A stretch of 37,571 bases of DNA. It comes from Ardenticatenia bacterium (GTDB taxonomy: Bacteria > Chloroflexota > Anaerolineae > Aggregatilineales > JALXEW01). Below are positions 16,102 to 19,447 of this stretch, piece by piece. A program made the position numbers and the translations under genes. The notes under the pieces are model-generated. The model had not been told where the DNA came from. It saw only the letters and a program-made list of their open reading frames with translations, and ran no database searches. The number at the start of each line of letters is the position of its first letter. Within the stretch, counting starts at the first letter, position 1. The stretch is from contig JALXEW010000273.1 of the NCBI GenBank assembly GCA_027069285.1, forward strand, positions 1 to 37,571, in the 5' to 3' direction.

Positions 16102-16494
16102 ATGTACCAATACACCATCATAGTCGGAAACCTGGGCCGCGATCCGGAACTCAGATATACCGGGCGCGGCGATGCCGTCTGTAGCTTCACCGTGGCCGTC
16201 AACCGCCGCTGGACCGATCCGCAAACCTCGGAACTGAAAGAGAAAACCACATGGTTCAGGGTATCGGCCTGGGGCAGATTGGCCGAGACAGCAGCCCAGT
16301 ACCTGCGCAAAGGATCGAAAGTCCTCGTGACCGGCTCGGTTGATGCCTCTGCCTGGATAACTCAGGAGGGCGAGCCTCGTGCCACATTGGAACTACGGGC
16401 CTGGACGATCAGATTCCTGGATAGCCGCCGCGACGTCGAACCGGAAGGTGCGCCCGAACCCCCGCCGGAGGAACTGGGCGACATCCCGTTCTAA
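16102..16494 (+). CDS. ssb: Single-stranded DNA-binding protein
   Basis: IVGNLGRDPELRYT, TTWFRVSAWGRLAE, YLRKGSKVLVTG, acidic tail GDIPF. Confidence 0.97.
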   Translation: MYQYTIIVGNLGRDPELRYTGRGDAVCSFTVAVNRRWTDPQTSELKEKTTWFRVSAWGRLAETAAQYLRKGSKVLVTGSVDASAWITQEGEPRATLELRAWTIRFLDSRRDVEPEGAPEPPPEELGDIPF

Positions 16495-16577
16495 CCTGGG
16501 CGCGCGGGCCTGCAAACGCCTGAGTACCCGATAACTGCCGGGCCGTCCTCATACCGGCCCGGCCATCGGAGGTCGAA

Positions 16578-16916
16578 ATGAGCAAATCACCAAATCCGCG
16601 CCAGCTGAAACTGGAGATACCCGCCTCGGTGAACGCCACATATGCCAACTTCGTATTGATAAGCCACTCGCCGTCCGAATTCGTGCTGGACTTCGCGCAG
16701 ATATTGCCAGGGGTACCGCAGGCGCGGGTTTTCGCCAGGATCGTGCTCACCCCCACCAACGCCAAACTGCTTTACGACGCCCTGGGCGCGAACCTGGAAA
16801 AATACGAAGCCAAATTCTCCAAGATCAAAACCCCGCCCAGGCCGCCGTCCCTGGCCGATCAACTTTTCAGCAGCGTCAAACCACCTGAGCCACCTGAAAG
16901 CGGAGGCGAGGAGTGA
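16578..16916 (+). CDS. DUF3467-family protein
   Basis: YANFVLISHSPSEFVLDFAQILPG..ARIVLTP..AK.L..AL..N..KYE.KF; SD GGAGG. Confidence 0.85.
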   Translation: MSKSPNPRQLKLEIPASVNATYANFVLISHSPSEFVLDFAQILPGVPQARVFARIVLTPTNAKLLYDALGANLEKYEAKFSKIKTPPRPPSLADQLFSSVKPPEPPESGGEE

Positions 16917-17572
16917 GCCTGCGTGAGACGACTGCCATCCTGAGCGAGATCGGCGAGCGGATACGCGAGGGCATGGAAGAGAAAAACCACGCCCGCGAGA
17001 TCGCGCTCGAACGCTCCCGCCACCTCATCCGCTTCTGCGCCACCGCCATCCAGGCCGTTCACAGGGGCGATTGGGAGACGGCAGAACTCCACCTGGCCGA
17101 AGCGGAAAAAGTAGCGACCGAACTTCTTGCCGAGACCGAGGCACATCCGGACATACGCTCCGCCGGATATACCCAGGATGCTCTCAAAGAATACGCCGAA
17201 GCGCGTCTCACATACGCCTTTGTCAGGGACATAGCCCCCCCGTCGCCAAGTGAGATATTAGTCGATGGAGCGGCCTACCTCAACGGCCTGGCAGAGGCCG
17301 CCTCGGAACTGCGCCGCAGCATCCTGGACCTTATCCGCAGAGACCAATTTAGCGAGGCCGAAAGACTCCTGGCGCTCATGGACGGGGTATACGGCCTGCT
17401 CGTCACGTTTGACTTCCCGGACATGATCTCCGGCGGGCTGAGACGCCGGGTGGATTCAATGCGCATGGTACTCGAACGTACCCGTGGTGACCTGACCGTC
17501 GCGTTGCGCCAGCAGAACTTGCAAGAGGCCCTGCGCCGTCTCGAATCCCGGCTGAGAGAGGATGAGCGGTGA
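16913..17572 (+). CDS. Translin/TRAX (C3PO-like) family protein, predicted endoribonuclease / ss-nucleic-acid binding protein
   Basis: All-helical with REIAL..SR..IR..AIQAVHRG, KEYAEA, YLNGLAEAASELRR, GLRRRVD, matching the archaeal/eukaryotic translin family; GTGA overlap. Confidence 0.85.
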   Translation: MSLRETTAILSEIGERIREGMEEKNHAREIALERSRHLIRFCATAIQAVHRGDWETAELHLAEAEKVATELLAETEAHPDIRSAGYTQDALKEYAEARLTYAFVRDIAPPSPSEILVDGAAYLNGLAEAASELRRSILDLIRRDQFSEAERLLALMDGVYGLLVTFDFPDMISGGLRRRVDSMRMVLERTRGDLTVALRQQNLQEALRRLESRLREDER

Positions 17573-17820
17573 GCGGCAACCCCCAGATCATCAGGGCGAG
17601 TGAAGTGGGCAGATACGTCTATTGCAACCGCGCGTGGTGGTACATGCGGCAGGGCATCGAACCTTCCAATCTGGCCGAAATGGCCGCCGGGAGCCGGTAC
17701 CATCACCTGCACGGATTGCGCGTGAGGGCAGCACGGATCATGGCGATCCTGGCCGTTACCCTGCTCGTCATCGGAGTCGTGCTTACCGTGATCGTGTGGC
17801 TGCTCGGAGGGGTATGGTGA
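17569..17820 (+). CDS. N-terminal part of a split Cas4-family nuclease, with a C-terminal transmembrane helix
   Basis: IRASEVGRYVYCNRAWW is the Cas4 N-terminal motif with the first Fe-S Cys. G..YH is the motif I helix, followed by RVRAAR and a ~25-aa hydrophobic helix. Confidence 0.8.
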   Translation: MSGNPQIIRASEVGRYVYCNRAWWYMRQGIEPSNLAEMAAGSRYHHLHGLRVRAARIMAILAVTLLVIGVVLTVIVWLLGGVW

Positions 17821-18329
17821 GCCTGCTACCGCTCCTGCTGATCGTGATAGGACTGATACTGTTAGCGATTGCCAGGCGAGGGCGTCGCTCCGCCGGACTG
17901 CCGGAAGGCCGCGTGGAATATAGCGATACCGGCGCCGAACGCCGTCCGGAGGCCCCCCTCTTCTCGCCAAGATACCGATTGACCGGGCGTCCGGACTACC
18001 TGGTCGAGCACAACGGCGCCTTTATCCCGGTCGAAGTCAAAAGCCGCCCGGCCCCAGATGAACCCTACGAGAGCCACATATTCCAGCTGACGGCTTACTG
18101 CCTGCTGGTCGAAGAAACCTACGGCAAACGTCCGCCATACGGCATAATTCGCTATCGGGATCGGGGGTTCCAGGTGCCCTATACCGCCGAAAGAAAGCGT
18201 GCTCTGGAACTCATCCTGGAACAAATGCGAACCGATCTGCATAGCGGTAACGTGGCACGCAGTCACGATGACCCCGCCCGCTGCGCCAGATGCGGATACC
18301 GACATCTATGTGAGGAAAGCCTGGTATGA
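17817..18329 (+). CDS. cas4: C-terminal part of a split Cas4-family (RecB-like PD-(D/E)XK) nuclease, with an N-terminal transmembrane helix
   Basis: TM helix plus RRGRR, LTGRPD (motif II), VEVKS (motif III), QLTAY (motif IV) and [10 protein letters not shown] (three Fe-S Cys). Start is GTG 17817 (SD GGAGG at 17806-17810) or ATG 17814. Confidence 0.85.
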
Positions 18330-19447
18330 CACCTCACTTCCGCTTTGAACTGCTGGCCGGTGGTGCCGAAGGCCCCCGTGCCGGCATATTCCACACCCCA
18401 CATGGCCCGATAGAGACGCCGGTTTTTGCCCCGGTTGGCACCCAGGGCACCGTTAAAGCCATCACCCCGCGCGACCTGGAAGAGATCGGCGTCGGCCTGA
18501 TCCTTGCCAACACCTATCACCTTTACCTGCGTCCTGGGGACGAGCTGATAAAGCGTCTTGGCGGACTACATACATTCATGGGGTGGGATAAACCGATCCT
18601 GACCGATAGCGGCGGATTCCAGGTCTTCAGCCTGAGCGCGATCAGCCGCATAGATGACGGTGGCGTCACCTTCAAATCGCACATTGACGGCTCGATTCAC
18701 AGATTCACGCCCGAAAAGGCCATCGCCATCCAGGAAAACCTGGGCGCAGATATAATCATGAGCTTTGACCAATGTCCTGTGCCGGATGACCGTGCAGAAG
18801 TCGAAAAAGCCGTCGAGCGCACCAATCGCTGGGCCGAAAGGGGACTCGCCGCGCATAAGCGCGACGACCAGGCTCTATTTGGGATCGTGCAAGGCGGGAT
18901 ATTCGACGACCTGCGGGTGGCATCGGTCGAATTCCTGGTTGGGTTGGGCTTTCCGGGGTATGCCATCGGTGGGCTATCGGTTGGCGAGACCAAAGAGCAG
19001 ATGTTCCGGGTGCTGGAACTCGTGTCCTCGATATTGCCCGCCGATAAGCCTCGCTACCTCATGGGCGTTGGCACCCCTTACGATCTGGTAGAGGGAGTCG
19101 CTCGCGGCATAGACATATTCGACTGTGTGCTGCCGACCCGGATCGCCCGGAACGGTGCCGCGCTCACCCTGACCGGACGGCTGAACATGCGCAACGCCCG
19201 ATACGCCGATGACCCGGCCCCGCTGGTGGAGGGATGCGGGTGCTATACATGCCGGAACTTCTCACGCGCCTACATTCGACACCTGGTCACTGCCCACGAG
19301 ATTCTGGGTCACCAATTGCTGACCATTCACAACATCCACACGCTGGTGAGCCTGATGCGCAAGATACGTTCGGAGATACTGGCGGGCACATTCGACGCCT
19401 TCCGGGCCGACTTCATCACCGCCTTTGAGCAACCCGCAGGACATTAA
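18326..19447 (+). CDS. tgt: tRNA-guanine(34) transglycosylase
   Basis: [54 protein letters not shown], Zn site CGCYTC..H. Confidence 0.97.

Follow-up and report, generated by a model that had tools for sequence, protein, structure and literature searches.

The window analysed here, 37,571 nucleotides (nt) of contig JALXEW010000273.1 from an Ardenticatenia bacterium (assembly GCA_027069285.1; Chloroflexota, Anaerolineae, Aggregatilineales), contains a row of six genes: ssb, a DUF3467 gene, a translin/TRAX homologue, two genes encoding the halves of a Cas4-like protein (cas4N and cas4C), and tgt. We are highly confident that the two Cas4 halves form a two-chain membrane architecture. The conserved core of the row is a Cas4-like nuclease made from two genes, each chain carrying one hydrophobic helix that is predicted to cross the membrane. 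Together, the chains are predicted to form a single iron-sulfur enzyme at the membrane's inner face, which would likely trim DNA during the DNA-damage response. In Anaerolineae, the pair appears to sit in an old, likely damage-inducible order, ssb-DUF3467-translin-cas4N-cas4C, in which ssb, DUF3467, and translin are likely co-regulated handlers of single strands and not obligate partners. For a role of the pair in DNA-damage repair, to which the LexA-type box, recN, and ssb found beside it in relatives point, we estimate a probability of roughly one half.

The N-half (83 amino acids, aa) corresponds to the first 50 residues of Cas4, with C19 and G41..H45 aligned to 8D3L and 4R5Q, and ends in a hydrophobic helix; the C-half (170 aa) opens with such a helix, followed by D60/E73/K75, Q90/Y94 (the QxxxY motif), and C156/C159/C165. 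Both helices have a Kyte-Doolittle value of about 3.0, and the two proteins share out the TIGR00372 model, the N-half covering positions 2-42 (E 1e-4) and the C-half positions 57-179 (75.2 bits, cut-off 65). The PD-(D/E)xK (RecB-type) site and QxxxY expected of a Cas4 are found in the C-half, whereas the four Fe-S cysteines are complete only when the two chains are taken together (C19 plus C156/C159/C165), and instead of a single soluble polypeptide there are two genes with a hydrophobic helix on each product. Basic residues average 2.3 before the N-half helix versus 0.4 after it, and 3.2 after the C-half helix, so that by the positive-inside rule both soluble parts are predicted to face the cytoplasm.

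To see how general this arrangement is, we gathered 163 C-half loci, namely the window, two metagenome loci (the only two from a metagenome scan with a single protein), 80 genome loci (the best of 585), and 80 regions taken from genomes with a match in the same-order and phylum surveys; after removal of five CRISPR-type Cas4 loci (L188-L192) and three duplicates, 155 distinct loci remained. The N-half was seen at 148 of them, as a split gene in 144, fused in three, and in one frameshifted assembly (G024). The other seven comprise four loci near a contig end, one of which (G042) gave no match in a genome-wide N-half search, two with the N-half on another contig, and one that is unexplained. The hydrophobic helix is present in all 144 split N-halves and in 153 of the 155 C-halves, and the key residues are widely kept (D60/E73/K75 in 141/155, C156/C159/C165 in 152-153/155, C19 in 147/148, and H45 in 124/148).

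A trivial explanation would be that the two open reading frames (ORFs) are a broken or frameshifted cas4 and that the row reflects mere gene packing. The 4-nt overlaps between the genes do occur at the base rate of the genome, and assembly G024 does have frameshifts here, but the same-place split with two helices is found across the 144 loci and also on plasmids from two further phyla, and the junction ranges from an overlap to separate contigs; the top 120 C-half relatives all measure 168-189 aa and the top 150 N-half relatives 65-133 aa. A programmed frameshift or broken gene was rejected on the grounds that over 250 nt separate the halves in 29 loci, where the loci that were read have an unrelated ORF in the gap, and that G243 and G153 carry the halves on different contigs. 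We regard this explanation as hardly credible; it is refuted for the Cas4 pair and holds for tgt, so that the simple lineage-specific packing allowed for in the original prediction applies to the latter and not to the former, which is conserved as a split pair. The presence of the two halves also coincides: among 40 same-order genomes, the same 14 have both, and two further weak N-half matches are the N-termini of ordinary Cas4 ORFs.

Natural fusions were found in five genomes of one genus, where the helices are absent, and at L178, where a helix hairpin is present; all are nested inside split clades. The five fused forms without helices (family f8; L009, L011-L014) have no catalytic Glu and retain all four cysteines. 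L178 lies within L164-L180 (families f36 and f55), whose N-halves carry a long acidic insertion (130-146 aa) and several of whose C-halves have lost catalytic residues. A search for longer fused N-half forms among proteins of 176-2000 aa gave three matches among the top candidates considered, none of them fused to the nuclease half, which is weak evidence. In public annotation the N-half is a "hypothetical protein"; its relatives form 680 clusters at E 1e-10. Stored homologues, consulted for DUF3467 and the N-half, led only to Chloroflexota clusters without a name and to one Bacillota PD-(D/E)XK cluster at 0.88, which is a lead.

A model of the N-half and C-half with a 4Fe-4S cluster scored 0.88, versus 0.01 for the best of three controls; the mark used for this score, which is roughly applicable here, was reached by 116 of 157 solved pairs and 2 of 215 mismatched pairs. 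The runs agreed in at least 89% of contacts, the partner predicted local distance difference test (pLDDT) was at least 75, and the modelled interface includes the C19 and C156-C165 regions. The two chains are thus predicted to assemble into a heterodimer.

In CRISPR Cas4 (8D3L chain I, 4R5Q, 7MI4), the nuclease core and C-terminal cysteines align with the C-half and the first 50 residues with the N-half. Those proteins are single soluble chains with Cas1-Cas2, whereas no cas1 was found among the 32 window proteins scanned, and in the source genome cas1 (contigs C45 and C223) and the CRISPR-type cas4 lie off this contig. The pair is thus not encoded in a cas1/cas2 adaptation module as a CRISPR-associated Cas4 is, and in a quick tree the split clade is separate from CRISPR Cas4 with an SH-aLRT of 99. 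Hudaiberdiev et al. (2017, PMC5704561) described CRISPR-independent solo-Cas4 proteins that are monophyletic in many Chloroflexi, and their supplement lists a single solo cas4 for each of Anaerolinea, Caldilinea, Chloroflexus, Roseiflexus, and Herpetosiphon; the C-half is probably this gene. The available text of that paper states four cysteines in the Fe-S module for all members of the clade, whereas here a second protein, unannotated and with its own membrane anchor, carries the fourth cysteine and the G..H motif; the paper's main text has no mention of a split or a membrane anchor ("split" occurs 0 times and "membrane" once, in an unrelated context). The Solo-Cas4 of Methanosarcina mazei (PMC12501428, available sections) is likewise a CRISPR-independent DNA nuclease with a four-cysteine [4Fe-4S] cluster and an unclear physiological role, but it is described there as one soluble chain with no RecB motif and with no mention of a membrane. 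Full-text literature searches, with subscription journals and preprint supplements outside their scope, turned up no account of this operon or of a Cas4 in split, membrane-bound form. Solo-Cas4 and translin of Chloroflexi are already known, and the two-chain membrane Cas4 is apparently unpublished.

What solo-Cas4 proteins do is not settled, and those of the Chloroflexi have so far been counted as ordinary Cas4. If the two-chain membrane unit is the working enzyme, the annotated gene alone misses a cysteine ligand and a conserved histidine, and the unannotated partner, with its many clusters, would gain a function.

By analogy with the Cas4 family, the pair would have nuclease activity on DNA, and the gene neighbourhood of relatives points to the process that it may serve. 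In Anaerolineales, the pair lies away from translin and heads a cas4N-cas4C-nadK-recN row (64-73 loci). For the LexA box of Chloroflexota, we used what we take to be the consensus, checked only on lexA and uvrA of the source genome, both of which carry (T)AGAAC-N4-GTTC(T/G) boxes, lexA having a second box that ends in GTGCT. No confirmation of such a Chloroflexota box was found in the literature, PMC8565304 included. The candidate LexA element of the relatives reads AGAAAATTTGTGCT. A box of the form AGAA(A/C/T)-N4-GT(G/T)CT precedes the N-half at 51 of 53 named loci away from translin and at 8 of 10 loci of family f9, against shuffle values of 0.16 and 0.03 and 4 of 44 control sites. At 48 of 120 starts, the element TAGAAAATTTGTGCTATACT, which joins a LexA-type box to an extended -10, stands about 6 nt before the N-half start codon (L036-L110, L124-L131), a placement that suggests a leaderless transcript. 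Furthermore, of 44 translin-linked ssb genes, 11 are preceded by a box with no more than one mismatch, versus 1.5% of shuffles, and at six loci translin, the Cas4 pair, and nadK-recN all stand in a single row, which suggests that this is the ancestral arrangement. Given that the pair heads a LexA-boxed nadK-recN operon in many Anaerolineales, DNA-damage repair is its likeliest role. Together with ssb, the box and recN make this role testable.

Several observations nevertheless weigh against this account. The helices and H45 lie outside the confident part of the modelled interface, and the model's pass can be explained by the likeness to solved single-chain Cas4, since halves of a known fold can pass. 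The N-half box pattern was written after the element had been seen; the box occurs at 0 of 37 loci near translin and at 1 of 45 other loci, outside Anaerolineales, where the pair stands behind rpsB-tsf-pyrH-frr-uppS-cdsA-rseP or metabolic genes. The box also travels with a downstream recN, which is present at 51 of the 52 boxed loci with enough sequence, while 43 loci have neither; because of this co-occurrence, the box may be there for recN, and the boxed loci are close kin that probably represent one event. In the source genome, recN is on another contig and the operon shows no LexA-type box, the best match before ssb having three mismatches and none being found in 15801-19500, whereas in relatives a box does precede the same genes, where it is confounded with recN. 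Finally, catalytic residues are lost at 14 of 155 loci and 26 of the 40 same-order genomes yielded no pair, and for this reason the pair is dispensable and may have a non-catalytic side.

A further point against repair comes from plasmids, whose copies speak for DNA transfer no less than for repair. In its split form with both anchors, the pair occurs on three Bacillus subtilis plasmids (~65 kb) and on at least two Planctomycetota plasmids. The one B. subtilis plasmid that was read carries Tcp-type conjugation and Flp pilus genes, with the pair behind a gene for a 706-aa helicase and before hfq, and on the Planctomycetota plasmids (Paludisphaera, Singulisphaera) the pair lies beside a DNA methylase gene and mobF (MobF relaxase). 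Translin, ssb, and DUF3467 are not present on the plasmid stretches L265, L266, and L270, and quick trees give the plasmid proteins no firm place. The same two-chain membrane nuclease could then trim or destroy DNA that crosses the membrane in transformation or conjugation instead of damaged chromosome, and a membrane tether would suit a transport site. On the other hand, only 8 of 72,556 plasmid records match, four of which are annotated cas4 genes that were left aside; competence and conjugation genes are not among the recurring Chloroflexota neighbours scanned (20 representatives, 40 proteins); and the Chloroflexota copies appear to be vertically inherited. We consider a primary role in transfer unlikely, and repair remains the reading that we prefer. 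Whichever applies, the B. subtilis copies offer a genetically tractable host.

Inheritance was judged from the C-half tree, also built with a quick method, in which 23 label changes for 24 host-family groups equal the minimum (shuffled mean 59.4), which indicates mostly vertical inheritance. The named relatives are Chloroflexota, mostly Anaerolineae. In an even set of 301 Chloroflexota genomes, the C-half profile was matched in 102, of which 92 were counted as the helix-bearing clade (profile match starting within the first 23 positions). These patterns also bear on the possibility that the pair, alone or together with translin, is a self-contained defence nuclease that acts against phages or plasmids where their DNA enters. 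Its loss is patchy within the order, with the pair kept in only 14 of 40 genomes; other solo-Cas4 proteins act in defence according to the available text of PMC12501428; and AlbA, AbiEii, and insertion sequence (IS) genes are found close to one divergent clade. Against this, the pair is nearly always single-copy, stands in housekeeping gene rows, and tracks host families, and PADLOC profiles match only Cas4/DruK on the halves and, weakly, DpdA on Tgt, with nothing for ssb, DUF3467, or translin and no profile set making up a known anti-phage system at this locus. Viral contigs yielded no relative, and phage records no match. A dedicated defence function is in our view improbable, and we return to the genes that accompany the putative repair nuclease.

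The translin homologue shows whole-length similarity to TRAX, matching AfTRAX (E 3e-19, residues 15-206) and NEQ131 (E 2e-9), although Pfam gave no match at E 0.01 and the family's name in NCBIfam is "haloacid dehalogenase superfamily protein". Prokaryotic C3PO/TRAX proteins (AfTRAX 3ZC0/3ZC1; NEQ131 5JR9) share its four acidic catalytic positions: E93, E96, E128, and E132, all Glu in 100 of 100 Chloroflexota homologues, correspond to E82, E85, D117, and E121 of NeC3PO as given in PMC5100593. Since these positions are kept, the protein is likely active; it differs in having Glu for Asp at the third position and in its place behind ssb and DUF3467 in Anaerolineae. A single translin gene in Chloroflexi is known from PMC5100593, whose available text contains no test of a bacterial member. 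For DUF3467, the model (pLDDT 83) has three strands and then a helix and weakly resembles PC4/PUR/Sub1 and COMM domains; the first 21 matches of the fold search include COMMD, Borrelia Pur-alpha, MoSub1, human PC4, and phage T5 PC4. However, the fold search is weak (Z 3.3-4.2, best 4.2 for COMM and 3.8 for Pur-alpha with a root-mean-square deviation of 2.8 over 60; identity 10-17%; Foldseek E at least 0.11) and no sequence match was found among solved chains, so that single-strand binding is only a lead. A full-text literature search for "DUF3467" returned an unrelated occurrence only, and the present neighbourhood gives a first context for bacterial translin and for DUF3467.

Among 29 same-order translin loci, ssb is found in 19, DUF3467 directly before translin in 18, either of the two just upstream in 24, and the Cas4 pair in 6; DUF3467 is present at 7 of 9 further same-class loci. 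At 31 hand-picked translin loci of other classes, chosen among genomes with no previously established linkage, ssb, DUF3467, and the pair were found in none. Thus, ssb-(DUF3467)-translin is a conserved Anaerolineae block, and the DUF3467-translin co-occurrence that the original prediction had proposed to check holds in this class and not outside it. Seen from the Cas4 side, translin is a neighbour at 37 of the 155 loci, in several families, DUF3467 at 25, and ssb at 23. The translin-Cas4 linkage therefore stands as an adjacency in several families, but it is loose in the phylum sample: translin occurs in 90 of the 92 pair-bearing genomes and lies within 3 kb of the pair in only 11 of those 90 (a hand count, in which the translin place of G331 was not listed). 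A gene for a regulator with FHA and winged-helix domains follows the pair in one genome (L015:2023-2655), and such a gene comes directly after translin in ten loci in which the pair is gone or moved (L196, L200-L202, L206, L208, L211, L219-L221).

It could be argued that SSB, DUF3467, translin, and the Cas4 pair make up one physical machine for single-strand processing, in which DUF3467 would be a PC4-like binder and the pair would serve as the membrane dock. The adjacencies just described, the presence of translin in nearly all pair-bearing genomes, and the weak PC4/PUR likeness of the DUF3467 model are in line with this idea, as is family f8, which has no translin match (0/6) and whose Cas4 has no catalytic Glu. 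Yet f8 represents one event, the fold match does not exceed Z 4.2, the genes are apart in 79 of 90 genomes, their spread is unequal (of 301 genomes, 171 have translin, 92 the pair, and 56 DUF3467), and the ten loci with the FHA/winged-helix gene right after translin are of the same order. We therefore find a single physical machine quite doubtful. A more elaborate version of the repair reading, which we offer tentatively and think rather unlikely as a whole, is that this is a widespread and so far undescribed form of enzyme, that the Fe-S cluster and metal site of the Cas4/RecB-type nuclease would be complete only once the two membrane proteins meet, as an assembly switch, and that in an Anaerolineae SOS operon with SSB, PC4-like DUF3467, and a bacterial C3PO nuclease it would clear or trim single-stranded DNA at the membrane, having been borrowed by conjugative plasmids of other phyla.

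The original prediction had read all six genes as a candidate nucleic-acid processing module. Its description of the locus was accurate: the six ORFs, the four 4-nt overlaps (GTGA 16913, GTGA 17569, GTGA 17817, ATGA 18326), and the 83-nt gap between ssb and DUF3467 on the same strand were all confirmed; Pfam and NCBIfam upheld the names SSB, DUF3467, Cas4-like, and Tgt, and the AfTRAX and NEQ131 matches upheld translin. As a sign of function, the overlaps were rejected. With our own simple gene finder (2215 genes in the source genome), a 4-nt overlap occurs at 247 of 1501 same-strand junctions (16.5%), in 194 runs of one, 20 of two, one of three, one of four (this locus), and one of six; independence would give about 0.9 runs of at least four, as calculated from the base rate. 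The run is thus about what chance gives and no sign of a system.

The module itself is not conserved. Across the 155 loci, tgt is a neighbour only in the window itself, or 1 of 143 among loci with at least 1.5 kb of downstream sequence; it sits on a contig other than that of the Cas4 pair in all 14 same-order genomes that have the pair, and is present in 41 of 41 genomes whatever other genes they have. Because of this, a six-gene unit is not supported: tgt is a passenger, joined on in this lineage alone, and both its link and the overlaps are ordinary. What remains of the conserved neighbourhood is the ssb-(DUF3467)-translin block in Anaerolineae, with the Cas4 halves after translin in several families, and the suggested handling of single-stranded nucleic acids at the membrane survives as a single-stranded-DNA and repair theme, not as a six-gene system. 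The other proposal, that translin, the Cas4 pair, and Tgt serve tRNA maturation or turnover, could appeal to the overlapping genes at this locus, to fungal C3PO, which degrades 5′ pre-tRNA fragments (PMC5100593, in the text available), and to an AlaX-like or poly(A)-polymerase/CCA-like gene that adjoins translin in four distant genomes, but the distribution of tgt has already largely refuted it, and we hold it to be highly improbable.

Table 1. Genes and other features of the row, and plasmid copies of the Cas4 pair.
Feature	Location	Strand	Description
Possible extended -10 promoter ahead of ssb	16011..16019	+	TGn-TAAAAT; by eye, weak
ssb	16102-16494	+	130 aa; PF00436 E 1.5e-32, TIGR00621; short single-stranded-DNA-binding protein with acidic DIPF tail
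DUF3467 gene	16578-16916	+	112 aa; PF11950 E 2.9e-21
Translin/TRAX (C3PO-type) homologue	16913-17572	+	219 aa; AfTRAX E 3e-19; E93, E96, E128, E132
Cas4 N-half	17569-17820	+	83 aa; C19 (17623), G41..H45 motif (H45 at 17701), predicted C-terminal transmembrane helix, residues 57-75 (17737-17793)
Cas4 C-half	17817-18329	+	170 aa; PF01930/PF12705; predicted N-terminal transmembrane helix (17817-17873), D60/E73/K75, QxxxY, C156/C159/C165
tgt	18326-19447	+	373 aa; ordinary queuine tRNA-ribosyltransferase; PF01702, TIGR00430 514 bits, cut-off 306.75
Plasmid copy	L265:5336-8657		split, doubly anchored pair
Plasmid copy	L266:4588-5369		split, doubly anchored pair
Plasmid copy	L270:4624-5396		split, doubly anchored pair

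The possible -10 in Table 1 is absent from the output of the promoter scan, and the promoter and terminator scan as a whole was at chance level. The spacer between ssb and DUF3467 can form a 9-pair hairpin, with folding no better than that of shuffles (z -1.37), and a second ssb copy lies on contig C169 of the source genome.

Elsewhere in the window, a 665-aa ORF (23365-25362, +) and a 240-aa ORF (523-1245, -) were matched by neither Pfam nor NCBIfam. A suf operon for Fe-S assembly (sufC, sufB, sufD, sufS, sufU; 4019-9376, +) lies about 7 kb upstream, with no sign of a tie to the Cas4 pair. Directly behind a GAF/PAS histidine kinase gene is a gene for a stand-alone archaeal-type threonyl-tRNA synthetase editing domain (12377-12790, -; PF08915 E 1e-38), which is Ser-tRNA(Thr) hydrolase-like. 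Finally, a Dam-like adenine methyltransferase gene overlaps an HNH endonuclease gene by 4 nt (30840-32497, +), and the two are probably a restriction-modification pair.

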